DNA of 64,000 nt from contig CAMEXD010000004.1 of NCBI GenBank assembly GCA_945947035.1, positions 2,362-66,361 of the forward strand. Reading direction: 5' to 3'. Below the pieces are notes generated by a model, which saw only the letters and a list, made by a program, of their open reading frames with translations, was not told the origin of the DNA and ran no database searches. The translations under genes and the position numbers were made by a program. Positions 21,306 to 46,410 of this stretch are shown in pieces. The stretch is from an uncultured Mycoplasma sp. (GTDB lineage Bacteria; Bacillota_I; Bacilli_A; RF39; UBA660). Every line of letters starts with the position of its first letter. Position 1 is the first letter of the stretch.

Positions 21306-21491
21306 TTCTTTTTTTGATATTATAACAACATTAAAATTTTGACAATTTGCAATATGGATATAAGTCAAAGAGATTAGAATGATAATTCCAGTCTTTTCTT
21401 TAATCTAAAATAAATAATATTCCGAACAAATAGAATATTTCTATCTTTTTTAATATTAATTATTCTATATTTTAACTTTTATTAAAATCTT

Positions 21492-21508
21492 AATAATTCT
21501 TAATAAAA
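21492..21508. repeat. variant motif TAATAATTCTTAATAAA upstream of the PlsC gene 21597
   Basis: 17-nt exact match to 29100-29116 upstream of a second PlsC gene. Related to the TTAATAATTTTTAATAA family. Confidence 0.45.
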
Positions 21509-21596
21509 TAAATATAAATTTAAATAATAAATAGTTGTATAATGATAAAGAGGCGATTAATAATGAAAAGAGAAAGTAGTAAAACAAATAAAAAAT

Positions 21597-22307
21597 ATGA
21601 AAAAGTATAATTTTGAAAATCTAAAGGATGATGATGAAGTAGTAAAAAACTGGGAACCATTAAAATTTGAAATAAACGATAATTATAAATATATATCAAA
21701 AAACATATTTTTCAATTTCTTTTCTAATGTAATATACTTTGTTATTGCTCCAATATTAATTATTTTTGATAGAGTGTTTTTTGAATATAAAATTATTAAT
21801 AAAAAGAATATTGTAAAGAATGGTGGATTTGTAAGTATATCAAACCATATACATCAAATGGATTGTACTTTTATTGGACTTGTCTATTATCCCCATAGAG
21901 TTTATTATCCAACATTAGCAAGTAATTTTAAAATTCCCGTTGTAAGACATATAATAAAAATGCTTTATGCAATTCCAATACCAAAAAAAGATAATCAAAA
22001 GGAAAAATTTTATAGTGATTTAAACAGTGTATTAAAAAAAGGCAAAATAGTCCAAATGTATCCCGAGGGTTCTTTATGGCCATATTATGATAAAATTAGA
22101 GACTTTAAATATGGTGCATTTAAAATAGCTGTAGAAGCTGATGTTCCTATTCAACCTATTAGATTTAAATATGTAAACAAGTGGTATAAGAGAAAACCTG
22201 CTATAATATGCGAAGTTCTAAAACCTATATATCCCAATAAGAAATTAAAAAAAGAAGAAAGAATAAGTGATTTGAGAGATCGTTCTTTAAAAGAAATGAG
22301 GAAGTAA
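21597..22307 (+). CDS. PlsC-family 1-acyl-sn-glycerol-3-phosphate/lysophospholipid acyltransferase
   Basis: H(x)4D motif SNHIHQMDC and the PEG block MYPEGSLWP. Confidence 0.7.
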   Translation: MKKYNFENLKDDDEVVKNWEPLKFEINDNYKYISKNIFFNFFSNVIYFVIAPILIIFDRVFFEYKIINKKNIVKNGGFVSISNHIHQMDCTFIGLVYYPHRVYYPTLASNFKIPVVRHIIKMLYAIPIPKKDNQKEKFYSDLNSVLKKGKIVQMYPEGSLWPYYDKIRDFKYGAFKIAVEADVPIQPIRFKYVNKWYKRKPAIICEVLKPIYPNKKLKKEERISDLRDRSLKEMRK

Positions 22308-22309
22308 AG

Positions 22310-23386
22310 ATGAAAGTGTTAGTATTATCATGCAATACAGGTGGTGGTCATAATTCTTGTGGAAAATATATTTGTGAAGAACTAAAATCAAATAATATAG
22401 AATGTGATTTTAAAAATTACTTCGAGATAGTACATTTAAGTAAGAAGGATTTTTCAAACAAAATTTATGTAAAATCTATTGGAAAAAAAGGAGGATTGTT
22501 TAAATATATTTATCAGATAGGAGATGCTTATGATAAAACAAAAATATTATCTCCTGTATATCTAGTAAATAAAATGTTTTCAAACAGACTATATAATTTT
22601 ATAAAAAAAAATAAATATGATTTGATAATATGTCCTCACTTGTTTCCTGCACAAGCATTAACTGCAATAAATAAAAAACATAAAGTTAATTTTATATTTA
22701 TTGATACTGACTATGAATATCATCCTTTTACAGATGAGATAATCGCAGATTATTATGTAATTCCAAAAGATTTAGAAGAACGATTTGTATCTAGAGGTAT
22801 TGATAAAAATAAATTACTACCTTTTGGTATTCCTATATCAAGCCAATATATAACGAATGCTAAAAATATAAAAAATAAACTTAATATTAATGAAAAGATG
22901 ATACTAATAATGCTTGGTAGTATGGGATTTGGTAATGTCGAAACAATATTAGATGATCTTTTAAAAATCGAGAATGTAAGCATAGTTGTAGTTTGTGGAA
23001 GAAACAAAAAATTGTATGATACATTAAAAAAATATAATTATAAAAATTTAATAGTAATAGGATATTCTAAAAATGTAAATGATTTAATAAAATCATCAGA
23101 TATTGTCATTTCAAAACCTGGTGGTTTATCTTCAACTGAAATTGCTTCTTTTAGAAAAGGAATTATACATGTTTTCCCTATACCTGGTGTAGAAACAGGA
23201 AACACAAAATACTTTAGTGAGCATAATTTAAGTTTTGTCGCAAATAAAAAAGAAGAAATAATAGATTGTGTCAACAAATTATTAAACAACGATGATATAT
23301 ATAATGAAATGATAAAAAATCAAAAAAGATATATATCTTCAAGTAGTGCAAAAGATTTAGCTGATTTTATAAAAAATAAATATTAA
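22310..23386 (+). CDS. diacylglycerol glycosyltransferase (MGDG-synthase/UgtP-like GT-B)
   Basis: N-terminus MKVLVLSCNTGGGHNSCGKY matches the MGDG_synth/UgtP signature (ILILSASIGGGH...). GT-B C-terminal domain follows. Confidence 0.65.
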   Translation: MKVLVLSCNTGGGHNSCGKYICEELKSNNIECDFKNYFEIVHLSKKDFSNKIYVKSIGKKGGLFKYIYQIGDAYDKTKILSPVYLVNKMFSNRLYNFIKKNKYDLIICPHLFPAQALTAINKKHKVNFIFIDTDYEYHPFTDEIIADYYVIPKDLEERFVSRGIDKNKLLPFGIPISSQYITNAKNIKNKLNINEKMILIMLGSMGFGNVETILDDLLKIENVSIVVVCGRNKKLYDTLKKYNYKNLIVIGYSKNVNDLIKSSDIVISKPGGLSSTEIASFRKGIIHVFPIPGVETGNTKYFSEHNLSFVANKKEEIIDCVNKLLNNDDIYNEMIKNQKRYISSSSAKDLADFIKNKY

Positions 23387-24460: not shown

Positions 24461-24488
24461 TTTTTAATAATTTTTAATAATTTAATAA
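24461..24488. repeat. intergenic motif copy: TTTTTAATAATTTTTAATAATTTAATAA
   Basis: Identical over 25-28 nt to the copies at 32132 and 45992. Follows a terminator, precedes the radical SAM gene. Confidence 0.6.
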
Positions 24489-24551
24489 TAATTTATTAAT
24501 AATAATTAAATAAAATTGAAATTGATTTGATTAATGAAGAAGGAGATAATT

Positions 24552-26006
24552 ATGGCGAAAAGTAATTCTTTAACACATAAGGTTGAAAGAAAAGCAGTTG
24601 AAAAATTTGTTGATTCAATTTTGAAAAAAATGAATCAGGATAGAGAGAAGGAAATATCTAATCTCTTAGAATATGCAGAAAAATTTGAAGGAAATGAGGT
24701 TATAAAAGGGCTTAAAGAAATAGCGAAAGATCCAAATAGTAGATGGATGAAATTTGTAAATAAACTTCTTGATGAAACAGATCCTCATGTTGCTAAAATG
24801 ACTATTCTAAATTTGGGTTATGAAGCAGCATTTAGAGGTACAAATGAAATTAGAAAAAATAGGGAAAAATATAATTGTAATATTCCTTGGTTAATATTAT
24901 TTGATCCTACAAGTGCATGTAATATGCATTGTAAAGGTTGCTGGGCAGGAACTTATGGACACAAATATAATTTGAGTTTTGAAGATATGGATAAAATAAT
25001 TACTGAAGGAAAAGAATTAGGAGTATATTTATATATGCTTACTGGTGGAGAACCTTTAGTAAAGAAAGATGAAATATTAAAACTTGCAAAAAAACATAAT
25101 GATGTAGAGTTTTCAATTTATACGAACTCAACTTTCATAACAGAAGATTTTTGTAAAGAAGTTGTTAAATTAGGAAATATAGCTTTCCAACTTTCTATTG
25201 AGGGTACTGAAGATACAAATGATGGTCGTCGTGGAAAAGGTCATTATCAAAAAGTATTAAAAGCTATGGATTTATTACATAAATATGGAATATTATTTGG
25301 AAGTTCAATTTGTTATACAAGAGATAATGTAGAAGCAGTAACTGATGATAAATTTTTACACATGTTAGCAGATAAGGGTGTAAGATATAGCTTCTTCTTC
25401 CACTATATGCCAGTAGGCAATAATGCAGTGCCAGAACTATTACCAACAGTTGAACAAAGAAAATATATGATTGAAAAAATAAGGAGTTTAAGAAGTGATG
25501 ATAGTGATTTAATGTTATTCCCAATGGATTTCCAAAATGATGGAGAATATGTAGGTGGTTGCATTGCTGGAGGAAGAAATTATTTCCATATAAATTCTAA
25601 TGGTGATGCAGAACCATGTGTATTTATACATTATTCAAATATGAATATCCACGAGCATAGCATTTTAGAAATTCTTCAAAGTCCATTGTTTATGGCATAT
25701 CATGATGGACAACCTTTTAATAGGAATCATTTAAGACCATGTCCAATGCTTGAAAATCCAGAATATTTAAGAGATATGGTAAAGAAAACAAAAGCACATT
25801 CTACAGATTTAGAATCGCCAGAAGATGTTGAACACTTATGCAGTAAATGTGATTTGTATGCTGAAAATTGGAGGGAAGAAGCTGATAAAATTTGGAATAG
25901 CAAAGATCATACATATCATGGTGAATATGAAAATTATGCACCTCAAAATAGAAGCAAATTAGAATCTAAAAAGGGGGTGAAGAAAAATGCTAAAAAAACT
26001 AAATAA
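24552..26006 (+). CDS. radical SAM protein with C-terminal SPASM/twitch-like Cys-rich domain and an approximately 120-aa N-terminal extension
   Basis: RBS AAGGAG then ATG 24552. CNMHCKGCW carries the CxxxCxxC motif. The C-terminal Cys cluster is GGCIAGG...EPCVF...RPCPM...CSKCD. Confidence 0.7.
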   Translation: MAKSNSLTHKVERKAVEKFVDSILKKMNQDREKEISNLLEYAEKFEGNEVIKGLKEIAKDPNSRWMKFVNKLLDETDPHVAKMTILNLGYEAAFRGTNEIRKNREKYNCNIPWLILFDPTSACNMHCKGCWAGTYGHKYNLSFEDMDKIITEGKELGVYLYMLTGGEPLVKKDEILKLAKKHNDVEFSIYTNSTFITEDFCKEVVKLGNIAFQLSIEGTEDTNDGRRGKGHYQKVLKAMDLLHKYGILFGSSICYTRDNVEAVTDDKFLHMLADKGVRYSFFFHYMPVGNNAVPELLPTVEQRKYMIEKIRSLRSDDSDLMLFPMDFQNDGEYVGGCIAGGRNYFHINSNGDAEPCVFIHYSNMNIHEHSILEILQSPLFMAYHDGQPFNRNHLRPCPMLENPEYLRDMVKKTKAHSTDLESPEDVEHLCSKCDLYAENWREEADKIWNSKDHTYHGEYENYAPQNRSKLESKKGVKKNAKKTK

Positions 26007-26568
26007 ATATTTTAATATTTCTATAGTAATTGCAATAATATTTGCAGCATTAGGAATAATACTAATGAGTTATCCTGATATTTCCTTTAATGCTATATCA
26101 TATTGTATTGCAGGTATATTAATAATTAATGGATTAGTATTGTTTGTAGTTGATTATAAGACATATTCTTTATTTGTTAATACCTTCTTTTATGCAATTT
26201 TATCAATTATAGGTGGTGTATTAGTTCTAATTCATCCAAATGCACTAAAAATGGCTATTCCAATTTGCTTAGGTATATGGTTTATTGCTGGAGGATTATT
26301 TAAACTAAGATTTAGTGCATACTTAAGAGATTCAAATACATTCTATAGTGTTTTATCAGTAATAGCTAACATAATTACAATTATTTGTGGAGTTATACTT
26401 TTAATGAATCCAATTGAAAGTGTTGAAATAGTAACTGTAAGTATGGGTATAATTCTTCTAGTATATTCAATTGCAGACCTTATAGATATGATAGTTATTA
26501 AAAAGAATGTTAATGGTATTTCTAGATTTATTAAAGATGAAGTATCAAGATTTAAAGAACTAGATTAA
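25987..26568 (+). CDS. membrane protein with repeated TM pairs (DUF308/HdeD-like)
   Basis: Six hydrophobic helices. Overlaps the radical SAM stop. Confidence 0.4.
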   Translation: MLKKLNKYFNISIVIAIIFAALGIILMSYPDISFNAISYCIAGILIINGLVLFVVDYKTYSLFVNTFFYAILSIIGGVLVLIHPNALKMAIPICLGIWFIAGGLFKLRFSAYLRDSNTFYSVLSVIANIITIICGVILLMNPIESVEIVTVSMGIILLVYSIADLIDMIVIKKNVNGISRFIKDEVSRFKELD

Positions 26569-26576
26569 TAAGGTAG

Positions 26577-26846
26577 GTGCTAATAGTGGATGTATTAAGT
26601 ATATTATTAAAAGTATTTGGTTTAATCTTAATTATTGTATTTATAATTTTAGGAATAAAACTTATACTATTAACTGAAAAAGCAACAAAGGTTGTTACAG
26701 ATGTTGAAGAAGAAATTGAAAATTATAAAAACAGATTTTCTATGGTAGGAAGAGCATTCGATTATATATCCAATATAACTGAAAAATCTACCTTCTTATT
26801 AAAGAAAGTATTTAGAAAAAATAGAAAGAAAGATGAGGAATATTAA
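26577..26846 (+). CDS. DUF948-like small membrane protein
   Basis: N-terminal TM then a charged helix. Family often paired with YtxH-like proteins. Confidence 0.4.
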   Translation: MLIVDVLSILLKVFGLILIIVFIILGIKLILLTEKATKVVTDVEEEIENYKNRFSMVGRAFDYISNITEKSTFLLKKVFRKNRKKDEEY

Positions 26847-26847
26847 T

Positions 26848-27252
26848 ATGAAAAAAAGAGATTTAGGAAAAATAGCAGCAGGTGCTGCACTTGGAGCAGG
26901 ATTAGGAATTTTACTAGCTCCTAAAAGTGGTAGTGAAACAAGAAAAGAATTAAACGAAAAAATTCATGAATTACTAGATAAAGTTAAAAATATTGATTCT
27001 AAAGAATTAAAAAATGAATTTAATGATAAAATTAATGAACTTAAAGAAGAAATAAAAGATTTAGATAAAGAAAAAGTTTTAAAAATTGCCAAAACTAAAT
27101 CTGAATCAATAAAAGAAAAGGCAGACAATTTAGTTAATTTAGCAAAAGAAAAAGGAAATGCGATACTTGAAAAGAGTGCCACTGAAGTAAGAGAAAATGC
27201 TATTTCTGTTACAAAGAAAGTGTTAGACAAACTAGAAAGTGCTGAAAAATAA
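26848..27252 (+). CDS. YtxH-like general stress protein
   Basis: MKKRDLGKIAAGAALGAGLGILLAPKSGSETRKEL is the YtxH N-terminal signature, followed by coiled coil. Confidence 0.5.
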   Translation: MKKRDLGKIAAGAALGAGLGILLAPKSGSETRKELNEKIHELLDKVKNIDSKELKNEFNDKINELKEEIKDLDKEKVLKIAKTKSESIKEKADNLVNLAKEKGNAILEKSATEVRENAISVTKKVLDKLESAEK

Positions 27253-28902: not shown

Positions 28903-29099
28903 TTAGTTTTACAACTAATTTTTTAATAGAAAAACTATTGAGAAATAAAACATTTTAATTCCCCAATAGCTTTCAGAAAGGAGTATGTAGCTCTAACTGT
29001 GGTTTTTAAAACTACTACTTTTTAATGAACTTTTTATAAAATTCATTATCAACATTATATCATCATATCAAAAAAAGTTAACGGAATTAGGATATTTTT

Positions 29100-29116
29100 A
29101 ATAATTCTTAATAAAT
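29100..29116. repeat. variant motif TAATAATTCTTAATAAA upstream of the PlsC gene 29182
   Basis: See 21492. Confidence 0.45.
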
Positions 29117-29181
29117 TATTTAAGGATTTATAAAAATTAAATAGTATCATAGTTTTATATTTAATCAATTTTATGTAAGAG

Positions 29182-29769
29182 GTGAAAATTTTGAAAGAAT
29201 CAGGATTATATAGATTTTCTAGACCTATTGTAAAAGCTTTTACTAATTTTTTTATTAGACCTAAATATGAAGGTTTGGAAAACATCCCAGAAAAAGGACG
29301 AATTGTTTTAGCAGGAACACATACACATAATTTAGATTGTTTTTTATTAATGAGTTCTACTAAAAGAAGTGTTCACTTTCTTGCAAAAGATGAATTGTGG
29401 AAAGGACCAAAAAAAATAATTTTTTCTAATATGGGATTAATACCTGTAAATAGGCGACAAAAAGATCCTAATTCATTACTAAAAGCAAAAGAGTATTTAG
29501 AAAATGAAGCAGTAATAGGCATTTTTCCAGAAGGTACTACTGAAAAAGAAAAAGGGAAACTATTACCATTTAAGATTGGCGCAGTGAAAATGGCAAGTGA
29601 TACAAATACAAAAATTATTCCATTTGCAATTAAAGGAAAATATAAATTATTTTCAAATAATTTAGCTATAAGATTTGGTAAACCCTATGATATAAAGTCA
29701 AAAGATTTAGATGAAGAAAATAACAAACTTAAAGATAAGGTTAGCAAGATTTTAACGGAGATGAATTAA
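29182..29769 (+). CDS. PlsC-family acyltransferase
   Basis: H(x)4D GTHTHNLDC and FPEGTT. The probable true start is TTG 29192 after RBS AGAGGTG. Confidence 0.7.
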   Translation: MKILKESGLYRFSRPIVKAFTNFFIRPKYEGLENIPEKGRIVLAGTHTHNLDCFLLMSSTKRSVHFLAKDELWKGPKKIIFSNMGLIPVNRRQKDPNSLLKAKEYLENEAVIGIFPEGTTEKEKGKLLPFKIGAVKMASDTNTKIIPFAIKGKYKLFSNNLAIRFGKPYDIKSKDLDEENNKLKDKVSKILTEMN

Positions 29770-32106: not shown

Positions 32107-32137
32107 TTTGTAATGAAAATTACAGGTATTATTTTTT
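32107..32137 (+). terminator. weak terminator hairpin TGTAAT-GAAA-ATTACA followed by a T-rich run
   Basis: 6-bp stem, T6 run begins 8 nt downstream. Confidence 0.35.
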
Positions 32138-32156
32138 AATAATTTTTAATAATTTA
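32132..32156. repeat. intergenic motif copy: TTTTTTAATAATTTTTAATAATTTA
   Basis: Exact 25-nt match. Follows a terminator-like hairpin, precedes the csp/gtrA/two-component operon. Confidence 0.6.
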
Positions 32157-32239
32157 TGGATTTTTTCTTAATAATTAAATTGTATTATGTAATTGTAATA
32201 GTTTTTAAATTACTAATAATTATGTGAAGGAGTATTATA

Positions 32240-32488: not shown

Positions 32489-32530
32489 TAATAAATAGTA
32501 AAAAAGTTGTTGATATTTTGAGGATAAATT

Positions 32531-32962: not shown

Positions 32963-33010
32963 AAATGCTGGAATAAATGATATAATTATATAAGTTGAAA
33001 GGAGCAATTT

Positions 33011-34986: not shown

Positions 34987-35058
34987 GTAATTAAAAAATA
35001 ATAATTTGTTCTTAAAATTAATATTGTCAATTAATTAATTTTGTCAAAGAGGAATGTT

Positions 35059-36759: not shown

Positions 36760-36765
36760 TGTATT

Positions 36766-37644: not shown

Positions 37645-37703
37645 TTATTTAATCATAAATTAATAAGAATTATTTTATAAAATGTATATTGAGGTGAAGG
37701 AAT

Positions 37704-37943
37704 ATGAAGATAAAAATAATTGGAGGTAATTCTAGTAATAGAATGAAATTGCAAAAAAATGTAATGAAGGTAGTAGAAAGTTTAGAAAAAAACATAGATG
37801 TAGAAATCTTGGATAGTGAAAAAGAAATAAGCAAATATAGTGTTACAAATACTCCTGGACTTGTTATTAATGAAAAACTTGTTAGTCAAGGCAAAGTAAT
37901 AAATGAAAAAGAAATAAAGAATTTTATTAGAATTCTTGGTTAG
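37704..37943 (+). CDS. thioredoxin-fold (Thioredoxin_3-like) small protein lacking the CxxC redox motif
   Basis: KIKIIGGNSSNRMKLQ...VTNTPGLVINEKLVSQGKV aligns to the small CxxC thioredoxin_3 family, but the Cys pair is replaced by N-S-S-N. Confidence 0.4.
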   Translation: MKIKIIGGNSSNRMKLQKNVMKVVESLEKNIDVEILDSEKEISKYSVTNTPGLVINEKLVSQGKVINEKEIKNFIRILG

Positions 37944-37958
37944 TTCTGGGGTATTAAT

Positions 37959-38642
37959 ATGGATTACTATTTTGTTAGTTATGGCTTAACAATAATATCA
38001 TTAATTATTACTTTGGCTGCTCAAGCATTTGTATCAAGTTCTTATAGTAAATACTCAAAAGTCAAAAACGCAAGAGGAATAACAGGGAAAGATGTTGCAA
38101 GATATTTATTAGATAAATATGGTCTATCTAATATTCGAGTTGTAGAAACAAATGGATATTTAACAGACCATTATGATCCAACTAATAAAGTTATTAAGTT
38201 ATCAAAGAATGTTTACAGGGATTCAACAATTGCTTCTGTGTCTGTTGCAGCTCATGAATGTGGTCATGCAATTCAAGACAAAGAAAACTATATGTTTTTA
38301 CGAATTAGAAGTGCTTTAGTCCCTATTGTAAATTTTTCATCACATGCAGGATATTTTGCAATCTTATTAGGTTGTATTTTTGGTTCTTTAAATCTAATAT
38401 GGATAGGTATAATTGCTGAAATGGTAATATTACTATTTCAAATAATTACTTTACCAGTTGAAATTGATGCTAGTAAGAGAGCATTAAAAGAATTAGATCA
38501 CATTCATTTTTTTAATAGTAATGAATTGGCAGAGAGTAAAACAATGTTGACAGCTGCAGCTCTTACTTATGTGGCAAGTATTGTTACTACTTTAATTCAA
38601 GTTTTAAGATTAATATTTATGTTTGGAAATAGACGAGATTAA
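37959..38642 (+). CDS. membrane-bound zinc metallopeptidase (Zn_peptidase_2/YpuA-like family)
   Basis: HExxH in AAHECGHAIQ. N- and C-terminal TM helices. Confidence 0.65.
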   Translation: MDYYFVSYGLTIISLIITLAAQAFVSSSYSKYSKVKNARGITGKDVARYLLDKYGLSNIRVVETNGYLTDHYDPTNKVIKLSKNVYRDSTIASVSVAAHECGHAIQDKENYMFLRIRSALVPIVNFSSHAGYFAILLGCIFGSLNLIWIGIIAEMVILLFQIITLPVEIDASKRALKELDHIHFFNSNELAESKTMLTAAALTYVASIVTTLIQVLRLIFMFGNRRD

Positions 38643-38645
38643 TAG

Positions 38646-39371
38646 GTGTATATTATGAAGTTTGAAAAGAAAAGGATAGGTAAAATGGTTAGACTAATTT
38701 TATCTTTAATAGTTATTGCAATTATGATAAGACAGATAATTCTAAAAGAATGGTTTATGGTATTTGCTTGTGTTTTTACACTTGTTGTATTTGCATTACC
38801 AAGAGTATTTTATAGAAAGTTCAATATAAAGTTTCCATTGGCATTAGAAATTGCAATATACTTATTTGTATTTGGAGCTGAAATAATCGGTGAAATAGGA
38901 GAATACTATATAAATGTTTCTTGGTGGGATGATTTATTGCATACAGTAAGTGGAATGCTACTTACAGCTGCAGGATTATTTTTTATAAGTGTGTTAAATA
39001 ATGAAAACAAAAGATTAAATTTGCCTGTATTTTATAAAGTTCTTGCAGCTTTTTGTTTTTCAATAACCATTTTAGCTTTATGGGAATGTTTTGAATTTGG
39101 AGCAGATTGCTTAACAGGATCTGATATGCAAAAAGACACTTTTATTACAACCATAAATAGTGTTGATTTAAACGAAAAAAAAGTTAATAAATCAGTAAAT
39201 TTAGAAATAGAAACTTTGGAAGTAAATGGTGAGGATTGGATGAAAAAATATGGTGGATATTTAGATATTGGTCTATATGATACAATGTATGATTTATTAG
39301 ATGGTCTTCTTGGTGCTTCAATATATTCTGTATTCAGTTATTTCTATTTGAAGAAAAACCAATATGCTTAA
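38646..39371 (+). CDS. hypothetical polytopic membrane protein
   Basis: Six hydrophobic helices. No motif. Confidence 0.35.
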   Translation: MYIMKFEKKRIGKMVRLILSLIVIAIMIRQIILKEWFMVFACVFTLVVFALPRVFYRKFNIKFPLALEIAIYLFVFGAEIIGEIGEYYINVSWWDDLLHTVSGMLLTAAGLFFISVLNNENKRLNLPVFYKVLAAFCFSITILALWECFEFGADCLTGSDMQKDTFITTINSVDLNEKKVNKSVNLEIETLEVNGEDWMKKYGGYLDIGLYDTMYDLLDGLLGASIYSVFSYFYLKKNQYA

Positions 39372-39378
39372 AAAATAA

Positions 39379-40179
39379 TTGGTGGTGATAAAATTGAAGA
39401 AAAGAGTTTTGAGTGCAATTATTATGACTTTAATAGTTATACCATTTATTGTAATAGGTGGTAATTTATTTAATATAGGTATAAGTATTTTAAGTATATT
39501 AGCTTTTAAAGAGTTAATGAATTTAAATGATAATAAAAATTATCCTTTGGTTATAAAGATAATCAGTTTAATAAGTATTATATTTTTAATTAATTATAGA
39601 AATACAGATGCTGATTTAATGCTTAATATACCAATATGGATAATATCTTCAATAGTAGGATTATTATTTATTCCAGTTGTATTTAATATCAAGAATTATA
39701 ATTCAAATAAAGCATTTAAAATGTTAGCAAATGTGCTATTTTTAGGAATAACATTTAATTTACTAATATCTACTTATAACTATAGTTTAAAATATTTTTT
39801 ATTGCTAATTGTTATATGTGCATTTACGGATATGTTTGCTTTGTTTGGTGGTAAATTATTTGGTAAACATAATTTTACGGAAATTAGTCCAAATAAAACT
39901 ATTGAAGGTTGCATATCAGGTTCTTTAGTAGCAATTATTGTAGCATCAATATTTTACTATTTTGTTATTAACAAAAATCTAACTATCATTAAAATAATAA
40001 TAATTTTATTATTAAGTATTATAGATCAAGTTGGTGATTTATTTTTTAGTAAAATCAAAAGAGATAATAACATTAAAGATTTTTCTAATCTAATTCCAGG
40101 GCATGGAGGAATTTTAGATCGATTAGATAGTTTTACTTTTGTACTATTAATGTTTAGCATAGTCTTTAGAGTATTATGA
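39379..40179 (+). CDS. cdsA: phosphatidate cytidylyltransferase
   Basis: CdsA signature NKTIEGCISGS and GHGGILDRLDS near the C-terminus. Polytopic. Confidence 0.8.
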   Translation: MVVIKLKKRVLSAIIMTLIVIPFIVIGGNLFNIGISILSILAFKELMNLNDNKNYPLVIKIISLISIIFLINYRNTDADLMLNIPIWIISSIVGLLFIPVVFNIKNYNSNKAFKMLANVLFLGITFNLLISTYNYSLKYFLLLIVICAFTDMFALFGGKLFGKHNFTEISPNKTIEGCISGSLVAIIVASIFYYFVINKNLTIIKIIIILLLSIIDQVGDLFFSKIKRDNNIKDFSNLIPGHGGILDRLDSFTFVLLMFSIVFRVL

Positions 40180-40394
40180 AAGGCGATTATATGAAAGATG
40201 ATAATAATATAGAAGATAAAGTAGATTGCTTTGCAAGAATTAATAAAGAAATATGCAATGCTTTAATTAAAAAAGAATGTAAAAATTGTAACTTTTATAA
40301 GCACAAAGATGATGTGTTCGGATATGAAGAAATACTAAAAAAAGGAAAAAAAGAACTATTAAAAACACAAAAAAAGATTAGTTGTGCAATTTAA
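40176..40394 (+). CDS. small Cys-rich hypothetical protein
   Basis: 72 aa with C..C..CKNC. Overlaps neighbouring stops. Confidence 0.3.
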   Translation: MKGDYMKDDNNIEDKVDCFARINKEICNALIKKECKNCNFYKHKDDVFGYEEILKKGKKELLKTQKKISCAI

Positions 40395-40425
40395 AAATAT
40401 TATATAGAAGGAATGATAAAATTAT

Positions 40426-41121
40426 ATGGAATATCAAATTGCAGAAATAGAGAAAAATATATTATATTATAGGTTAGCTAAAAATCAACTTGAAACTTAT
40501 ATAAATGGAATTAATAATGAATTTGAGATTCTTTATGATAATAATCCAATTAATCATATAAAAACGAGAGTAAAAACTGTTGAAAGTATAATTGGTAAAT
40601 TAAAAAGAAAAAAATTGAAAATTAATAAAGAAAATGTTGAAAAATTAAATGATATTGTCGGTGCTAGAATTGTTGTTGATTTTATTGAAAACATATATGA
40701 GATAGCAGAAACAATAAAGCAAAACACAAATATAAACATTATAGAAGAAAAAAATTATATTGATAATCCTAAAAATAGTGGTTATAGAGGATATCATATT
40801 ATTATATCAATCCCTGTTTCTATTGCAGGAATTACAAAAGATATTAAGTGTGAAATTCAAATTAGAACAATTGCTATGGATTTTTGGGCTTCTAATGAAC
40901 ATAAATTAAATTATAAATCTAAGAATCATTCTACTAAATATAAAAGAAAATGGATTGATGCAGCAGATAAAGTTTGGGATTTAGATACATTTATGAATGA
41001 GTTATATTTAGAAGAAAAACAAAATAAAATTAAATATAAAGATGATAAGCATAATATAGAAATATCGGTTTTAAAATCACTAGAAAAATTAGGAAAAATC
41101 AAAAAGCTAAGTGAAAGTTAA
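40426..41121 (+). CDS. small alarmone synthetase (RelP/RelQ-type GTP pyrophosphokinase)
   Basis: Synthetase-domain blocks IKTRVKTVESIIGKL, DIVGARIVV and SGYRGYHIII. About 230 aa, the typical SAS size. Confidence 0.8.
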   Translation: MEYQIAEIEKNILYYRLAKNQLETYINGINNEFEILYDNNPINHIKTRVKTVESIIGKLKRKKLKINKENVEKLNDIVGARIVVDFIENIYEIAETIKQNTNINIIEEKNYIDNPKNSGYRGYHIIISIPVSIAGITKDIKCEIQIRTIAMDFWASNEHKLNYKSKNHSTKYKRKWIDAADKVWDLDTFMNELYLEEKQNKIKYKDDKHNIEISVLKSLEKLGKIKKLSES

Positions 41122-41123
41122 AG

Positions 41124-41576
41124 GTGAAAATTATGGATGAGAGAATAAGAAAGTTTATGTATGGTAGATATGGTCCAGATGAATTATATAGATTTCATTT
41201 AATATTATATTTTATAACATTAATTATAGGATTATTTGTTAAAAGTAAAATTCTATTGCTCATACAATTATTACTTATAGCATTAATTGTTTTTAGACCT
41301 ATGTCAAAGAAAATATATAAACGAAGTGATGAAAATGTTCGATTTTTAAAGATTAAAACAAAAATAACAAAACCTTTTACTAATATAAAAAGAAACATAA
41401 AAGACAAAGATCATATTTATAAGAAATGTCATAAATGCAAAACAACATTAAAATTACCTATTCCATTAAAAAGAGGAATAAAACATGCTAAATGTCCTCA
41501 TTGTGGAAATAGGGTAACTCTTTTTACTTTAAAAAAAGAGAAAATAGAAATTATTACAAGTAAAAATAAAAAATAA
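41124..41576 (+). CDS. membrane protein with C-terminal zinc-ribbon
   Basis: TM helices then a CHKC...CPHC pair. Confidence 0.35.
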   Translation: MKIMDERIRKFMYGRYGPDELYRFHLILYFITLIIGLFVKSKILLLIQLLLIALIVFRPMSKKIYKRSDENVRFLKIKTKITKPFTNIKRNIKDKDHIYKKCHKCKTTLKLPIPLKRGIKHAKCPHCGNRVTLFTLKKEKIEIITSKNKK

Positions 41577-41617: not shown

Positions 41618-41657
41618 TTAATTATTTTTAATAATTTTATAATTTTTTAATAATAAA
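41618..41657. repeat. intergenic motif copy (degenerate, extended): TTAATTATTTTTAATAATTTTATAATTTTTTAATAATAAAT
   Basis: Upstream of the MMPL gene. Confidence 0.4.
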
Positions 41658-41691: not shown

Positions 41692-43764
41692 ATGCATAAA
41701 ATAGCAGATTTTATTGTAAAAAATAAAAAAATAATTCTGATTCTAAATTTGCTTTTATTAATACCAGCTATTATAGGTTTTAGTTTAACAAAAACAAATT
41801 ATGATATTTTAGTATATTTACCTAGTGATATTGAAACACTAAAAGGTCAAAATATATTAAAAGATGATTTCAAAATGGGTGCATTTTCTGTTTCTTTAGT
41901 AGATAATGATATAAGTGATAAAGAATTAATTACTTTGGAAAACAAAATTAGAGAGATAGATTGTGTTAATGATGTAGTTAGCATTAATGACATCACAGGA
42001 ACAACTATTCCTTTAGAGATGTTACCAAAGAAATTCGTTGATCATGTATCAACTGATGATTCTAAATTATTACTTATAACATTTTCAACTGGTACAAGTG
42101 ATGAAGAAACAACTGATGCAGTAAAAGAGATAGAGGAATTATCTAGTAGTATTAAAGTTGGTGGTATGAGTGCTATGTCTTTGGATATGAGAAGGTTAGT
42201 TGAAAGTCAAACTTTTACTTATGTGTTATTGGCAGTTGTATGTTGTCTAATTATACTAATGATATCTCTTGATTCATACATTGTTCCATTAATATTGTTA
42301 GGAAATATTGGAGTATCAATTCTATTTAATATGGGAACTAACATAATGTTTGGGGAAATATCTTATATCACCAAAGCAATTGCAGCTGTATTACAACTTG
42401 GAGTAACTACTGATTTTTCAATATTCCTATATCATAAATACGAAGCTGCTAAAAAGACTAAAAAAACAAATGATGAAGCCATGAGTGAAGCAATTAGTGA
42501 AACTATGACATCTGTAATTGGATCTTCACTTACAACTATTGCTGGTTTCTTAGCACTTTGTAGTATGAAGTTTGGTTTAGGAAAAGACATAGGTTTAGTA
42601 ATGGCTAAAGGAGTAGTATTTGGTGTTTTGACAGTATTAACTTTTTATCCAGCATTATTGTTAATGTCTGATAAATTAATTCAAAAAACAAAACATAAGA
42701 CATTGATTCCAAAGTTTAAATTCATTAAACCAATTGTTACAAAAGGATATAAATGGATATTTATAGTTTTCTTAATTTTATTAGTACCTGCATATTTATC
42801 TCAAAAAAATACAAATGTTTATTATAAATTAGATACAAGTATTCCAGAAGATTATAATTATTCAATTGTCAGCAAAAAATTAAAAGAAGATTATGGTTTA
42901 ATATCACAATCTATGATCCTAGTTAATAAGGATATGGATAGTAGTGATATGAATAATATGATAGATGAAATTAATGATATAGATGGTATTGATAGTGTTT
43001 TATCATCTGATGTATTAGTCAAATATGGAATATCAATTAATATTCTTCCATCTAAAATAAGAAACATTTTAGAAACTGACAATTATAAACTTATTCTTGT
43101 TAACTCAAATTATGAAATAGCAAGTGATGAAATAAATGAGCAGATAAAATATTTAAATACAATAATAAAAAAATACGATAAAAATGCAATACTTGCTGGA
43201 GAAGGACCATTAATGAATGATTTGGTTGAAATAACAGCAATAGACTTTAGAAATGTAAATTATGTTTCAATAGGAGTTATATTCTTAATTATGTTCTTCG
43301 TATTAAGATCAATTAGTTTACCAGCATTTCTTGTTTTATCAGTAGAGTTTGCAATATTTATAAATATGGGTGTTCCATATTGGCATGGCACTAGTATTCC
43401 GTTTGTTTCATCTATTGTAATTGGAACTATACAACTTGGTGCAACAATTGATTATGCAATTTTACTAACAACAAAATATTTGGAAGAAAGAAAAAATGGA
43501 AAAGATAAGAAAACTGCAATGGAAGAATCTTTAGATTCGTCAGTATCATCAATTTTTGTTAGTGCAATGTGTTTCTTCGGAGCAACTTTTGGAGTATATG
43601 TTGTTTCAAAAATTGATATGATTGGATCACTATGTTTATTGATGGCAAGAGGTGCTATTATAAGCATGCTTGTAGTTATGTTTATTGTACCTAGTGTGTT
43701 ATTATTATTTGATAAATTAATAACTAAAACAACATTGGGGTTTAAGAAAGGAAAGATAGTATGA
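41692..43764 (+). CDS. MMPL/RND-superfamily transporter (YdfJ/YdgH-like)
   Basis: Two 6-TM bundles separated by large extracytoplasmic loops. MMPL-like organisation. Confidence 0.7.
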   Translation: MHKIADFIVKNKKIILILNLLLLIPAIIGFSLTKTNYDILVYLPSDIETLKGQNILKDDFKMGAFSVSLVDNDISDKELITLENKIREIDCVNDVVSINDITGTTIPLEMLPKKFVDHVSTDDSKLLLITFSTGTSDEETTDAVKEIEELSSSIKVGGMSAMSLDMRRLVESQTFTYVLLAVVCCLIILMISLDSYIVPLILLGNIGVSILFNMGTNIMFGEISYITKAIAAVLQLGVTTDFSIFLYHKYEAAKKTKKTNDEAMSEAISETMTSVIGSSLTTIAGFLALCSMKFGLGKDIGLVMAKGVVFGVLTVLTFYPALLLMSDKLIQKTKHKTLIPKFKFIKPIVTKGYKWIFIVFLILLVPAYLSQKNTNVYYKLDTSIPEDYNYSIVSKKLKEDYGLISQSMILVNKDMDSSDMNNMIDEINDIDGIDSVLSSDVLVKYGISINILPSKIRNILETDNYKLILVNSNYEIASDEINEQIKYLNTIIKKYDKNAILAGEGPLMNDLVEITAIDFRNVNYVSIGVIFLIMFFVLRSISLPAFLVLSVEFAIFINMGVPYWHGTSIPFVSSIVIGTIQLGATIDYAILLTTKYLEERKNGKDKKTAMEESLDSSVSSIFVSAMCFFGATFGVYVVSKIDMIGSLCLLMARGAIISMLVVMFIVPSVLLLFDKLITKTTLGFKKGKIV

Positions 43765-45959
43765 AAAAGATATTTAAAAAATTATTAGCTTATACTTTAA
43801 TTCTTGGTGAATTATTTCAAACAACAGGAGTTTATGCACTCACAAAAGAAGAAACAGTATATGCAAAATTAAATGAAACAGGAGAATTAAAAAGTGCTTC
43901 TGTTACTGAACACTTATATAATTATAGTGGAAAGACAATTAGTGATAAAACTAGTTTAGATAGTATTAAAAATATTAACGGAAATGAAACATTTAAACAA
44001 AATGATAATAATCTTGTTTGGGAAGCTAATGGTAGTGATATTTATTATCAAGGTACATATGCAAAAAATTTACCAATAAGCCTTGATGTTAAATATTATT
44101 TAAATGGTGAAGAAAAAAATGTAAATAATATTTTAGGTAAAGATGGAAAGATTAAAATAGTTTTAACTTATAAAAATAATTCATATAAAAATATGAATAT
44201 TAATGGTAGAACAGAAAAAATATATGTTCCGTATGCCATAATTACAACATCTATATTAAATAATACTGATAATAAAAATATTAAGGTTACCAATGGTAAA
44301 ATTATTGATAATGGTGTAAATTCTGTTATAATGGCAATATCTTCACCTGGATTATATGAGTCTTTAAAAATAGATGATATAAAAGATATAAATAAAGTTG
44401 AAATAACTTATGATACCAGTGATTTTGAATTAAATTCTATTTATTCTGTTGCAACAACAAGTCTATTTGATGATAACAATCTTGATATGTTTGGTGAAAT
44501 TAATAATCTATATAAAAGCATAAATTTATTACAAAGTAATATGGATACAATTGTGGATGCATCAAAAAAATTAAGTGATGGATCTAGTCAAATGAATGCT
44601 GGTATTACAGAGTTAAATAGTAGAATACAAGAATTAACACAAAAATATAAGTATTATAGAAATCAAGATCAAAATACCCTAAAAGAAGAACTTATAAAGA
44701 TTATTAAGCAAAATATTAATACAATCACACCTGCATTAGAAGAAGAAATAACTGCTGAAACAAGTAAAATAATAAAAGAAAATAAAAGCGAATTAGAAAA
44801 TGCAATTATTACTTATACTAAAAAGAATACTATGTCAGTAGTAGATGAAGAAGTAAATAAAATAGTTAATAATTTAGATATAAATAGTTTAATGGAAAAA
44901 GTTATTAATAGTAATTTATACAATTTACTAATAAATGATTCAGAGATTGCAGAATTAACAAAAGCACTTAAAGAAGATATTAATAAAGAATTAAAGAATA
45001 TTATAGTTAATGAATTTAATAATATAGAAAGTAGCATAAATAACAATATGTCACAAAGCGAAAAAGAAAAATATATAAGTGATATAGCAGAAAAATATGA
45101 TGTAACTTATGAACAAGCATTAGGAATAGTTGGAGAAGTTCAAACAGATACTTTAAATCAAGTAAAAAAGAACATCAGTGAAGCCAATATTCCAGAAAAA
45201 ATTATTAATTCTCTAAATGATAAAAATTATGTATTAAATTTAGTTAATGAATATATAAATAAATTAAATAGTAAATTAAATGAATCAATTAACAAAGATA
45301 CAACTGTTAATGAATATTCTAAAGAATTAAAAGAAAAAATATTATCAGCACTAAATAAAGATTTAGAAAATGAAAGTATGTATTTAAATACTAATGTTAA
45401 AGAATATATTTCAAGTTTAGTTGATAAAATAATTGATAATACTGCAAAAGATTTATCAAGCAAATATACTGAAGAATACACAAATAAAGTTGTTAAAAAT
45501 GTCATTGACAAGGAATTTAGTGAAGAAAATGTTGATTCAAAACTAAGAGAATTATTAAATATTTATGAAGATGATATAAATAAAAAGGTAACAGTTTTAG
45601 ATGATACCATAAATACATTATCAGATTCTTTAAATATGTTAAATGATGGATCAAAACAAATTTCAACAGGTATGAGTGCATTATCATCAGGACTTGAAAA
45701 ATACAATAAAGAAGGAATAAATAAAATTAATAATCTAGTTAATGGAGATGTTAAAACTCTTCAAAAAAGATTAGATGCACTTATTCAATTAAGTAATAAT
45801 AATCAAACAATAGACACTCTTCCTAATAGTGCTAATGGTAATTCAAAAATTATATTTATGATTGATTCATTATCCAAGCCATCCGAAACTATTGTTGAAA
45901 CTAGCAAAGAAGAACAAAAAAGTTCTCTCTGGGATAAAATAAAAGGACTGTTTAATTAA
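43761..45959 (+). CDS. secreted protein with YhgE/Pip-like repeats and long coiled coils
   Basis: Signal peptide. Repeated DGS.Q...G...L..G heptad-like units (SDGSSQMNAGITEL, NDGSKQISTGMSAL). Translationally coupled to the MMPL gene. Confidence 0.45.
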   Translation: MKKIFKKLLAYTLILGELFQTTGVYALTKEETVYAKLNETGELKSASVTEHLYNYSGKTISDKTSLDSIKNINGNETFKQNDNNLVWEANGSDIYYQGTYAKNLPISLDVKYYLNGEEKNVNNILGKDGKIKIVLTYKNNSYKNMNINGRTEKIYVPYAIITTSILNNTDNKNIKVTNGKIIDNGVNSVIMAISSPGLYESLKIDDIKDINKVEITYDTSDFELNSIYSVATTSLFDDNNLDMFGEINNLYKSINLLQSNMDTIVDASKKLSDGSSQMNAGITELNSRIQELTQKYKYYRNQDQNTLKEELIKIIKQNINTITPALEEEITAETSKIIKENKSELENAIITYTKKNTMSVVDEEVNKIVNNLDINSLMEKVINSNLYNLLINDSEIAELTKALKEDINKELKNIIVNEFNNIESSINNNMSQSEKEKYISDIAEKYDVTYEQALGIVGEVQTDTLNQVKKNISEANIPEKIINSLNDKNYVLNLVNEYINKLNSKLNESINKDTTVNEYSKELKEKILSALNKDLENESMYLNTNVKEYISSLVDKIIDNTAKDLSSKYTEEYTNKVVKNVIDKEFSEENVDSKLRELLNIYEDDINKKVTVLDDTINTLSDSLNMLNDGSKQISTGMSALSSGLEKYNKEGINKINNLVNGDVKTLQKRLDALIQLSNNNQTIDTLPNSANGNSKIIFMIDSLSKPSETIVETSKEEQKSSLWDKIKGLFN

Positions 45960-45967
45960 ATTAGAAG

Positions 45968-45997
45968 AAACTCACATTTCAATGATGCGAGTTTTTT
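45968..45997 (+). terminator. rho-independent terminator
   Basis: AAACTC(A)CAT-loop-ATG(C)GAGTTT then TTTTTT. Confidence 0.55.
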
Positions 45998-46020
45998 AAT
46001 AATTTTTAATAATTTAATAA
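45992..46020. repeat. intergenic motif copy: TTTTTTAATAATTTTTAATAATTTAATAA
   Basis: Exact match to 24461 over 28 nt. Directly follows the terminator at 45968. Confidence 0.6.
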
Positions 46021-46410
46021 AAAAATAATAAATCGAATTTTGTATATTTAAGCCATGGTAGTTTGATGTAAGAAACAGGCAATGCCATGGCTATTAATAT
46101 GAAAGGATGTTGAAGTAGTAATAAAAAAATAGAATTTTATAGTTGAGTAGTACCTTCTATTTTTTAATAATTGTATTATTTAGCTTAAGATTTCATAGAT
46201 TTGCAGTATTTGTCTATGATGAATTAAATTGACATTGCTCATAAAGAATGATTTATTTATGAGTAAAAAATACTGCAGACTTAAAATATATTTAATAATA
46301 TTAGTCAATAATTTTTCAGGGACAAGAATTTGTATTTACAGCGATACGAGTTCTTGTTCCTTTTTTTATTTTTCGAGAAATATTGTAAAAAAATGTAGAT
46401 CACCTCCTTT

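Follow-up and report, generated by a model that had tools for sequence, protein, structure and literature searches.

The operators of PhoB, OmpR and Bacillus subtilis PhoP are tandem direct repeats. In the Escherichia coli pho box, the OmpR F/C sites and the B. subtilis PhoP sites (TTAACA-like repeats at -60 to -20), half-sites follow each other at one helical turn and occupy the region from about -60 down to -10 in place of a -35 box, a strong distal pair of repeats is joined by a weaker proximal pair, and the cognate regulator belongs to its own regulon and is autoregulated. Tandem direct repeats with a period of 10-11 bp are normal for OmpR/PhoB-type regulators in general, an example being the SaeR site of Staphylococcus aureus, GTTAA-N6-GTTAA (PMC5083920). 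HexRK of Clostridioides difficile and YrkPQ of B. subtilis combine an OmpR-type regulator with a kinase of two transmembrane segments whose extracytoplasmic loop is small. They control a small regulon of lipid and membrane-biogenesis genes, among them an MGDG-synthase-like glycosyltransferase as well as a lipid flippase or transporter (PMC10128005). UP elements and phased A-tracts, such as those of E. coli rrnB P1 and Clostridium perfringens plc, are A+T-rich, phased by 10 bp and located at -59 to -40.

Here, we have analyzed a 20-bp element, YTTAATAATTYTTAATAAWTT, that is repeated in a stretch of 64,000 nucleotides (the window) from a genome of 25% GC. It has the tandem half-sites, the extent and the strong distal and weaker proximal repeats of the pho box, OmpR and PhoP operators, and a putative cognate regulator that we propose to be autoregulated lies within its regulon; the half-site, YTTAATAAWT, is its own, and the regulator has no curated equivalog match. 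The period is strictly 10 bp, as in the OmpR sub-sites, whereas PhoB, PhoP, WalR and SaeR sites have 11 bp. Both the SaeR box and the element consist of a TTAA core with A/T-rich filler, and natural SaeR sites, e.g., GTTAATAATTAGTTAA, are very similar to the element (PMC5083920). However, SaeR sites have 11 bp from TTAA to TTAA and lead with G, compared to 10 bp and C or T here, and the SaeR regulon comprises virulence factors rather than membrane-lipid genes. Identity with the SaeR box (GTTAA-N6-GTTAA, 11-bp period) was rejected on the basis of the period and the C/T lead. Judged from sequence comparison, the element is most likely a control element of an ordinary bacterial kind in an undescribed regulon, and it brings no new kind of mechanism to light.

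Distribution of the repeated element

The element copies, the genes that they precede and the regulatory genes are as follows (RR, response regulator; HK, histidine kinase).

21490-21509, + strand: putative operator copy 1, TTAATAATTCTTAATAAAAT, 23.2 bits; -10 TATAAT at 21538-21543; target, PlsC-like and UgtP-like glycosyltransferase operon, 21597-23386 (Pfam, NCBIfam)
24464-24483, + strand: putative operator copy 2, 24.7 bits; -10 TAAAAT at 24511-24516; target, radical SAM/SPASM-DUF308-YtxH operon, 24534-27252, possibly on to 28902
24492-24509, - strand: weaker inverted copy, 16.5 bits, over the promoter-proximal region of copy 2 (motif positions 29-46)
29098-29117, + strand: putative operator copy 3, 26.0 bits; -10 TATCAT at 29145-29150; target, PlsC / long-chain acyl-CoA-ligase-like / PlsC operon, 29182-32104
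32136-32155, + strand: putative operator copy 4, proposed autoregulatory site; -10 TATTAT at 32183-32188; target, csp-gtrA-RR-HK operon, 32240-34952
33011-33697, + strand: OmpR/PhoB-family response regulator, 228 aa, Pfam Response_reg and Trans_reg_C, recognition helix IGTVAVNIKSLR
33690-34952, + strand: sensor histidine kinase, 420 aa, HisKA and HATPase
34966-34985, + strand: putative operator copy 5, 21.6 bits; -10 TAAAAT at 35013-35018; target, acyl-CoA-ligase-like and patatin phospholipase operon, 35041-37644
37631-37650, + strand: putative operator copy 6, degenerate, two mismatches, 15.0 bits; -10 TAAAAT at 37678-37683; target, Thioredoxin_3 / Zn_peptidase_2 / DUF2238 / CdsA / 72 aa / small alarmone synthetase / 150 aa operon, 37704-41576
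37659-37676: weak inverted copy near copy 6
41618-41637, + strand: putative operator copy 7, 21.6 bits; extended -10 TGaTAGATT ending at 41670; target, MMPL transporter and 732-aa protein operon, 41692-45959
45996-46015, + strand: putative operator copy 8, 24.7 bits; -10 TATATT at 46043-46048
46050-46165, + strand: putative small RNA or leader, ~115 nt, which would be transcribed from copy 8

All eight copies are on the + strand and oriented toward the downstream gene, and they occupy gaps without genes from 21.5 to 46 kb; seven of them have at most one mismatch. At this tolerance, the core TTAATAATTNTTAATAAT is found on the + strand at 21490, 24464, 29098, 32136, 34966, 41618 and 45996, which are the seven copies that a first-pass annotation of the window had listed. 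It had missed the eighth, at 37631 (two mismatches, 15 bits, before a thioredoxin-like gene), and the two weaker inverted copies, 24492-24509 and 37659-37676, each of which lies 45 bp 3' of a main copy. A position-weight scan of the window is bimodal, with seven sites at 21.6-26 bits and nothing else above 10.1 bits outside the regulon promoters.

The annotation was right that the repeat is real and recurs beyond what the high AT content would produce. Seven intergenic matches with at most one mismatch were observed, whereas 300 dinucleotide shuffles of only the intergenic DNA gave 0.08 on average and never more than 1. A 25-mer version, for which window shuffles gave a mean of 0.05 matches, occurs without mismatch at 32132 and 45992, with one mismatch at 24460 and 34962 and with three at 29094. 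Identity over 25-28 nt had been claimed for three copies (24461, 32132 and 45992); 24-25 nt are shared but not 28, and the copy at 24460 starts with C. The statement that every copy follows a terminator holds for five of the eight, a convincing hairpin preceding 24464, 32136, 34966, 41618 and 45996 but not 21490, 29098 or 37631.

A compositional accident in a genome of 25% GC, or a small mobile repeat of the MITE or REP type, might be suspected from the sporadic presence of the exact 20-mer in AT-rich genomes of many phyla, including archaea, without a common context (among the matches listed). However, in addition to the shuffles, every copy is promoter-positioned and oriented with its downstream gene, the similarity among copies outside the 20-mer (66-75%) is restricted to promoter columns, neither terminal inverted repeats nor target duplications were found around the copies, and orthologous positions are conserved across genera. 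The shuffles, promoter columns and orthologous conservation practically refute this reading, which we consider to have almost no chance of being correct.

Anatomy of the element and promoter geometry

As previously noted from the window, the element is a tandem decamer with a spacing of one helical turn: it consists of two head-to-tail 10-bp units, YTTAATAAWT, at positions 0-9 and 10-19, which are direct half-sites within the 10-11 bp spacing of OmpR-type operators. Across 35 aligned sites, 18 of the 20 positions hardly vary, and the regulators of the genomes concerned share just 47-79% identity. Both units begin with a pyrimidine (position 0, T in 22 sites and C in 11; position 10, C in 18 and T in 17), and C at the unit starts is several-fold above its background of ~10%. 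The suggestion that C at position 10 marks a sub-family in front of PlsC genes did not hold, as this position is simply C or T and differs even between orthologues (T at the csp site of the window, C at its L108 orthologue; L numbers denote loci from other genomes).

The central 14 bp of the element are nearly palindromic, a feature that would suit an unlinked factor, either a global binder of AT-rich DNA or a dimeric HTH protein reading TTAAnAATTnTTAA. However, the positions that discriminate between the two symmetries (5 vs. 10; 15-18 vs. -3 to 0) break the palindrome and fit the direct repeat: the palindrome partners 5 and 10 are T and Y, which are never complementary in the 35 sites. In our own comparison with published consensus sequences, there was also no fit to the Fur/PerR/Zur 7-1-7 arrangement, CodY, Rex or cre.

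In all eight window sites, a -10 box of the form TAnnnT, sometimes with an upstream TG, is located 27-28 bp 3' of the element, which therefore spans about -59 to -40. The same box is present at motif positions 48-53 (or 49-54) in 32 of the 35 sites. Among columns outside the motif selection, T48, A49, T53, T34 and A35 are each found in 32 of 35 sites, and A36 and A25 each in 31. No TTGACA-like -35 box is present in the regulon promoters (35 aligned sites), so these promoters should be weak unaided; a degenerate, motif-like AT-rich stretch with a conserved TAA at positions 34-36 covers -37 to -14. The canonical -35/-10 promoters elsewhere in the window do not carry the motif. The fixed position relative to core promoter elements, which recurs with the same geometry in Bacillus, is typical of OmpR/PhoB-type operators and would agree with contact to RNA polymerase.

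Such an extended site also raises the possibility that the regulator encoded at 33011 binds but represses or acts dually, occupancy over -37 to -14 occluding RNA polymerase. A repressor would suit the motif-like sequence of positions 29-46, in which 31-32 of 35 sites have TAA at 34-36, and the reach to about -14, and both inverted copies (24492-24509, which is conserved in L108 at 6344, and 37659-37676) overlap the spacer and the extended -10 region. On the other hand, the strongest and invariant repeats lie upstream of the would-be -35 and not over the core promoter, promoters that lack a -35 box should be weak without an activator's aid, and the distance to the -10 box is fixed within 1 bp from Bacillus to Erysipelotrichaceae, which is typical of activators that contact polymerase. 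Repression or dual action is therefore unlikely.

Co-occurrence of the motif with a regulator family

The regulator has no NCBIfam equivalog that reaches the cut-off. Its DNA-binding domain is closest to WalR/VicR and next to SaeR (E = 3e-14 for SaeR, among its closest solved relatives). The kinase has two hydrophobic segments around a loop of ~90 aa, followed by HisKA and HATPase domains, and by analogy the pair may resemble HexRK and YrkPQ, although the regulon proposed here is larger and its content different. Apart from the regulator at 33011, the neighbourhood encodes just two regulators, an ArsR-type HTH protein (23549) and a sigma-like protein (46456), neither of which has a homologue in any motif-bearing locus.

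In an unbiased, regulator-first sample, loci of ~20 kb each were collected through regulator orthologues at 72-79% identity. Within these regions, the motif is confined to the sequences upstream of the RR-HK, Trx3-Zn-peptidase, MMPL and AMP-ligase operons. The same architecture recurs before orthologous genes in distant relatives (RR-HK, Trx3-Zn-peptidase, MMPL, acyl-CoA-ligase/PlsC and radical SAM), and a metagenome scan added regulators at 47-57% identity (L126-L129) with the motif upstream of their own operon. For individual copies, orthologous sites are kept for copy 2 (L077:1009, L108:6389), copy 4, upstream of RR operons (L002, L004, L108, L025, L028, L126-L128), copy 6, with a perfect motif (L002, L003, L024, L089), and copy 7, before MMPL genes (L003:10761, L004:12388). 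Only two of 74 paralogous OmpR-family loci (at most 43% identity), used as a control, contain a match, a plausible real site in L135 and a misplaced one in L199. In most genomes with orthologues of the regulator, the motif precedes the regulator's own operon; it is absent there in L003 and L125, so autoregulation is not universal.

The motif-first scan yielded at least 124 exact genome matches. Among the matches listed, approximately 21 have TAnnnT at positions 48-53, and 17 of these 21 adjoin orthologues of the regulator or of regulon genes, compared to only a handful of the remaining ~100. Five motif-first loci (L023, L032, L089, L098 and L101) have no regulator within the 8 kb fetched, which could again point to an unlinked factor. 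Nevertheless, across loci the motif is accompanied by no second DNA-binding protein, and the regulator-first sampling shows specific co-occurrence, which together with the broken palindrome makes an unlinked factor very improbable.

In genomes of higher GC content, operons of related regulators have the 20-mer ~90 bp in front of them, namely in L034/L129 (43% GC), Bacillus infantis (L062, 46% GC) and Solobacterium (L038, 47% GC). At 43-47% GC, an AT-only 20-mer contrasts with its surroundings. The recognition helices of the B. infantis and Solobacterium regulators, DNTVMVHITKIR and NGTVVVHIRKLR, differ at the same operator, indicating that the relation between helix and site is not simple. Bacillus velezensis has a variant, TTAAGAAT; its orthologous MTase-RR-HK operon and the adjacent VTT/DedA gene are preceded by CTTAAGATTTCTTAAGAACTT and CTTAAGAATCCTTAAGAATTT, in which neither the 10-bp phase nor the distance to the -10 box is changed.

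These data also bear on a regulator-independent explanation, in which the element is an UP element, as already raised in the first-pass annotation, or a phased A+T-tract (curved DNA) whose 10-bp-phased T-tracts are contacted by the alpha C-terminal domains of RNA polymerase and strengthen the promoter. UP elements occupy exactly this position, -59 to -40, and in our comparison with the published consensus 9 of 11 distal-subsite positions match. Furthermore, canonical TTGACx -35 boxes of unrelated mid-GC Clostridia are preceded, at a distance of 2-24 bp, by an identical T10 20-mer, which is also found before tpiA and hpf and sometimes extends to three to four phased repeats. Since this variant precedes canonical -35/-10 promoters and the position is that of an UP element, part of the effect could be independent of a regulator. 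However, the element does not behave as a generic strength module of loose consensus, free of regulon and regulator: it marks eight clustered promoters of one coherent gene set beside a regulator and is missing from the canonical promoters of the window, it is far tighter than UP elements, and it admits C, above background frequency, at positions 0 and 10, which interrupts the T-tract. It also differs from UP elements and A-tracts in serving promoters that have no -35 to assist and in being co-inherited with one regulator family, including upstream of regulator operons at 43-47% GC, and some of the Clostridial matches themselves precede VTT/DedA and PlsC-like genes, again lipid genes. The comparative evidence favors the regulator and leaves the UP-element explanation, its main rival, unlikely.

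We propose, with fairly high confidence, that the OmpR-family regulator 33011 has its operator in the element; this regulator probably acts as an activator at promoters without a -35 box and probably regulates its own operon. From the comparisons above we infer both the binding and activation rather than repression. The earlier proposal that this regulator binds the tandem site gains support, as the motif tracks its orthologues across genomes, and it is also favored by the rigid distance to the -10 box at -35-less promoters and by the absence of the motif from the canonical promoters of the window. A linked and co-inherited candidate cognate OmpR-family regulator, a hallmark of operators of this type, is found in both samples and contrasts with the 74 paralogous control loci.

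Proposed regulon and its possible function

Phosphorylated regulator would bind the two units as a tandem dimer, may reach onto the weaker proximal repeats, and would recruit RNA polymerase to promoters that work poorly alone. The outcome would be co-induction of eight transcription units, the regulator's own operon included (positive autoregulation). The lipid enzymes of the proposed regulon are three PlsC-type acyltransferases, two long-chain acyl-CoA-ligase-like proteins, a patatin phospholipase, CdsA and a UgtP-like glycolipid synthase. Other members are an MMPL transporter, GtrA, a cold-shock protein, a small alarmone synthetase, a Zn-metallopeptidase with a thioredoxin-like protein, a radical SAM/SPASM enzyme and probably a small RNA. 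Many targets are thus lipid genes, as had been noted, but not every copy precedes a membrane-lipid operon. This gene content suggests membrane-lipid remodelling or an envelope-stress response.

We further propose, tentatively and with somewhat less than even confidence, an undescribed Firmicutes-spanning two-component regulon whose operator consists of two 10-bp-phased YTTAAKAAWT units and which occurs in Erysipelotrichaceae-like gut Bacilli, B. infantis, B. velezensis and possibly Clostridia. Through it, the acylation and remodelling of membrane lipids would be co-ordinated with the synthesis of glycolipids and alarmones, with lipid export (MMPL, DedA/VTT) and with a small RNA, eight operons here being gathered in a 25-kb 'lipid island' under one regulator. 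If the operator reading is correct, it would provide a testable regulon map for an uncultured, very AT-rich lineage of gut or rumen Bacilli, comprising a sensor kinase with its regulator, an operator of 20 bp and eight transcription units as targets. Phospholipid re-acylation enzymes, a phospholipase, the synthesis of glycolipids and of (p)ppGpp and an MMPL exporter would then all be tied to a single signal. The conservation of the operator would be sufficient to predict targets in cultivable relatives, and since such targets are predicted in B. velezensis and B. infantis (the methyltransferase-RR-HK operon and the DedA/VTT gene), a genetic test is possible there.

Copy 8 has no protein gene within 400 bp downstream. 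The putative RNA at 46050-46165 matches no Rfam family and has no homologue among the fetched loci; it is predicted to form a 5' stem-loop followed by a terminator-like hairpin with a U-run (-29 kcal/mol, z = -3.2).

Distribution and anatomy of the element

The AT-rich repeat described in the first-pass annotation of this window is real and has more copies than first described, and it is a genuine cis-regulatory element. In a sequence of ~25% GC whose + strand holds nearly all genes, the 25-mer first described gave five matches at up to three mismatches (0.05 expected), and an 18-nt core (TTAATAATTNTTAATAAT) was found with at most one mismatch at 21490, 24464, 29098, 32136, 34966, 41618, and 45996 and with two mismatches at 37631, all eight copies lying on the + strand. 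A fairer null model is the shuffling of intergenic DNA alone (5.5 kb, 21.6% GC), which yielded a mean of 0.08 matches with no more than one mismatch versus the seven observed. A weight-matrix scan of the window was bimodal: seven sites scored 21.6-26 bits, followed by 24509(-) with 16.5 bits, 37631(+) with 15.0 bits, and 37676(-) with 11.2 bits, and no other site in the window exceeded 10.1 bits. The accompanying claim that the repeat follows terminators was borne out in part. Terminator-like hairpins precede five of the eight sites because the operons are tightly packed; they are not a property of the element.

Copies of the element in the window and the transcription units downstream
21490 (+): PlsC-like acyltransferase and a UgtP-like diglucosyl-DAG-synthase relative
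24464 (+): radical SAM/SPASM, DUF308, and YtxH proteins; perhaps also CmpB and a kinase-like protein
29098 (+): PlsC, acyl-CoA-ligase-like protein, PlsC
32136 (+): cold-shock protein, GtrA, OmpR-type regulator (33011-33697), histidine kinase (33690-34952)
34966 (+): acyl-CoA-ligase-like protein and patatin phospholipase
37631 (+): Thioredoxin_3, Zn_peptidase_2, DUF2238, CdsA, a 72-aa protein, YjbM-like alarmone synthetase, and a 150-aa zinc-ribbon membrane protein
41618 (+): MMPL and a 732-aa protein
45996 (+): predicted structured RNA of ~115 nt with a terminator; no protein gene next

The anatomy of the element was derived from 35 non-redundant sites pooled from the window and related loci. 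Their consensus, YTTAATAATT-YTTAATAAWT, consists of two direct units of 10 bp, with a pyrimidine at motif position 0 and TT at positions 19-20. Further downstream, A25 is present in 31 of the 35 sites, T34 and A35 in 32 each, A36 in 31, and T48, A49, and T53 in 32 each; none of these conserved columns (0, 19-20, 25, 34-36, 48, 49, and 53) played any part in site selection, and columns -14 to -2 upstream of the motif are without conservation. The T48/A49/T53 columns are the -10 hexamer, which occupies motif positions 48-53 in all window sites except 21490 (49-54), and the element therefore spans approximately -59 to -40. No TTGACA-like -35 box was found between the element and the -10. Elsewhere in the window, promoters are of the canonical type (for example, TTGACT-17-TATAGT at 14368 and TTGACA at ~21340), and the motif is absent from them. 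The central 14 bp of the element are nearly palindromic; a palindromic dimer site was considered and rejected, since the T of position 5 would have to pair with position 10, which is C or T, and since positions 15-18 are conserved and the mirror flank is not.

Two promoters have a weaker inverted copy of the motif, 24492-24509(-) and 37659-37676(-), in each case exactly 45 bp beyond the main copy and overlapping the spacer and the extended -10 region. The former is kept in the orthologue at L108, a locus of an 'uncultured Erysipelotrichaceae' MAG, and both may modulate activation or repression.

Genes downstream of the element

The gene content of the predicted regulon suggests membrane-lipid damage or envelope stress as its signal. 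The two acyl-CoA-ligase-like genes are paralogous (~41% protein identity, with 74% DNA identity over a 97-nt stretch, 30624-30720 / 35892-35988), as are the three PlsC-like genes, and the lipid island has thus partly grown by duplication, each duplicated gene having kept or gained its own operator. The kinase carries a ~90-residue loop between two hydrophobic segments. The radical SAM/SPASM enzyme (490 aa, 24534-26006(+)) is encoded first in its operon, ahead of the DUF308 and YtxH membrane proteins, and matched no curated equivalog; a tetraether-synthase-like relative was looked for among PDB sequences, where the enzyme matched generic SPASM maturases only.

The predicted RNA after the eighth copy, 46050-46165(+), comprises a 5' stem-loop followed by a terminator-like hairpin and a U-run (-29 kcal/mol, z = -3.2). 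No Rfam family matched this stretch, and a homologue search among the fetched loci matched the motif only; the stretch may encode a small RNA controlled by the regulator.

Comparative genomics of the element and its putative regulator

The first-pass proposal that a regulator such as the OmpR/PhoB-family protein at 33011 binds the repeat finds support in comparative genomics; the element is a putative two-component response-regulator operator with its regulon, a well-known kind of system. An identical regulator is encoded in the MAG GCA_019973115.1, and protein-level identity is 94-98% in L108. Three further loci of ~20 kb (L002-L004) were fetched via orthologues with 79, 77, and 72% identity, and their gene order is unlike that of the window. 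The motif was found before the regulator-kinase operon in L002 and L004, before Trx3-Zn-peptidase in L002 and L003, before MMPL in L003 and L004, before the AMP-ligase cluster in L002, and before YtxH-CmpB in L003, and nowhere else in the ~20 kb of each locus. In alignments of orthologous promoters, only the motif, a TAA block, the -10, and the ribosome-binding site are conserved.

A metagenome scan seeded with the regulator alignment returned 80 loci. In L126-L129, whose regulators have 47-57% identity, the motif precedes the regulator operon; L130 (55% GC) has degenerate copies only, and the flank of L125 is too short to judge. Among 74 loci of paralogous regulators with at most 43% identity, there was one plausible site, 126 bp upstream of the regulator in L135 (60% GC), and one further match, which is misplaced and due to chance. 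The recognition helix of the 33011-type family reads IGTVAVNIK[SN]LR. None of the motif-bearing loci has a homologue of two other DNA-binding candidates of the window, an ArsR-type protein (23549) and a sigma-like protein (46456), and by inspection none of the Fur/PerR/Zur, CodY, Rex, and cre consensus sequences fits the element.

From the motif side, a scan for TTAATAATTYTTAATAAWTT in one genome per species gave at least 124 matches in at least 120 stretches. Most of the matches listed are isolated and come from AT-rich genomes of every phylum, and the 20-mer alone is therefore not diagnostic. TAnnnT occurs at positions 48-53 in ~21 of the 124 matches listed, 17 of which adjoin genes orthologous to the regulator or to one of its targets. 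In three mid-GC genomes the AT-only 20-mer lies ~90 bp upstream of a related-regulator operon:

L034 (43% GC): before an ABC-FtsX-regulator-kinase operon
Bacillus infantis (46% GC): before a methyltransferase-regulator operon
Solobacterium (47% GC): before a regulator-kinase operon

The family of the B. infantis regulator is 77-87% conserved among Bacillaceae. In B. velezensis, CTTAAGATTTCTTAAGAACTT and CTTAAGAATCCTTAAGAATTT stand before the orthologous methyltransferase-regulator-kinase operon and the adjoining VTT/DedA gene, and the promoters of both carry CTTAAGAAT-N2-TTAAGAAT; the 10-bp phase and the distance to the -10 are as in the window, with G instead of T at half-site position 5. The orthologous B. 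cereus locus (L206) has neither the motif at up to three mismatches nor a TTAAGA-type repeat. A match 19 nt from a WalR start codon (L078) was dismissed as chance, and the exact motif strings occur in none of the papers searched.

The first-pass annotation had also considered an UP-element-like promoter module, which is the main rival reading, and the element may add some regulator-independent activity of this kind. Its position is exactly that of UP elements. In mid-GC Clostridia, a variant with T at position 10 occurs 2-24 bp before canonical -35 boxes, is sometimes repeated three to four times, and also precedes tpiA and hpf, a pattern resembling the generic enhancement of promoters by phased A+T tracts. 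Against such a role for the window element stand its regulon specificity, its almost invariant sequence, the enrichment of C at both unit starts, the -35-less promoters of the regulon, and its tie to one regulator family, GC-richer genomes included. Some of the Clostridial matches precede lipid genes, namely VTT/DedA (L017, L066) and a PlsC-like acyltransferase (L065), and could thus be members of the same regulon family.

Three Eubacteriales MAG contigs of 43-46% GC (L010, L097, L110), two of them from one MAG, share ~130 homologous nt around the T-variant 20-mer (ttttttgtgaNttttcaataggtttTTAATAATTTTTAATAATTTttaa...). They were suspected to be rRNA promoters, a reading rejected because neither a 16S rRNA gene nor any other known RNA gene follows them; the shared stretch is probably a repeated promoter-like or mobile sequence. 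In one lineage (L025:6620-6961(-), L028:3966-4240(+), L128:5735-6006(+)), a conserved ~190-nt leader separates the motif-dependent promoter from the regulator gene. Besides a conserved hairpin (TTAGAGTTTTCCCTACTCTAA) and a terminator-like stem, this leader has what may be an ORF of 17 codons, and a second promoter-like TATAAT comes next; the arrangement suggests attenuation or a small RNA before the regulator.

Proposed mechanism and related systems

Most likely, a head-to-tail dimer of the phosphorylated regulator would occupy the two distal units, and binding could spread onto weaker proximal repeats; that the regulator represses through this proximal stretch is a minority alternative. As an activator, it would contact RNA polymerase at the -35-less promoters and would induce its own operon. 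B. subtilis PhoP recognizes a core binding region, and OmpR binds 20-bp sites with two 10-bp sub-sites; the proposed mechanism mirrors both. Among solved structures, the DNA-binding domain of the regulator is closest to WalR/VicR and then to SaeR, whose site (GTTAA-N6-GTTAA) has the same half-site core TTAA, the period of the element being one base shorter. HexRK/YrkPQ control lipid and membrane genes (PMC10128005), a theme that the predicted 33011 regulon shares. As a match for the Bacillaceae regulator family, HitRS of B. anthracis was rejected, its direct repeat being HssR-like. What these results chiefly offer is the clean prediction of a lipid-remodelling regulon, the putative operator of which is conserved from Bacillus to Erysipelotrichaceae-like gut bacteria.

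Other features of the window

Downstream of the lipid cluster, 46200-64000 looks like an integrated conjugative element, with a TraG/VirB4-type ATPase (56195-58558), an M23 peptidase (59356-60270), a 939-aa SpaA/thioester-domain adhesin (48166-50985), and many small + strand ORFs. The sigma-like protein (46456-46926, 156 aa) has region 4 only. Rfam and tRNA scans found nothing except a pemK RNA motif (RF02913) at 47147-47227(+), a strong match (63 bits, gathering score 34.8) unrelated to the element, which sits within this mobile-element-like region upstream of a 71-aa ORF (47319-47534). Endospore formation in this very AT-rich 'Bacilli/Erysipelotrichaceae' lineage is indicated by a germination protease (Peptidase_A25) at 5480-6502(+) and by SpoIIP in the relative L002 (1-386).
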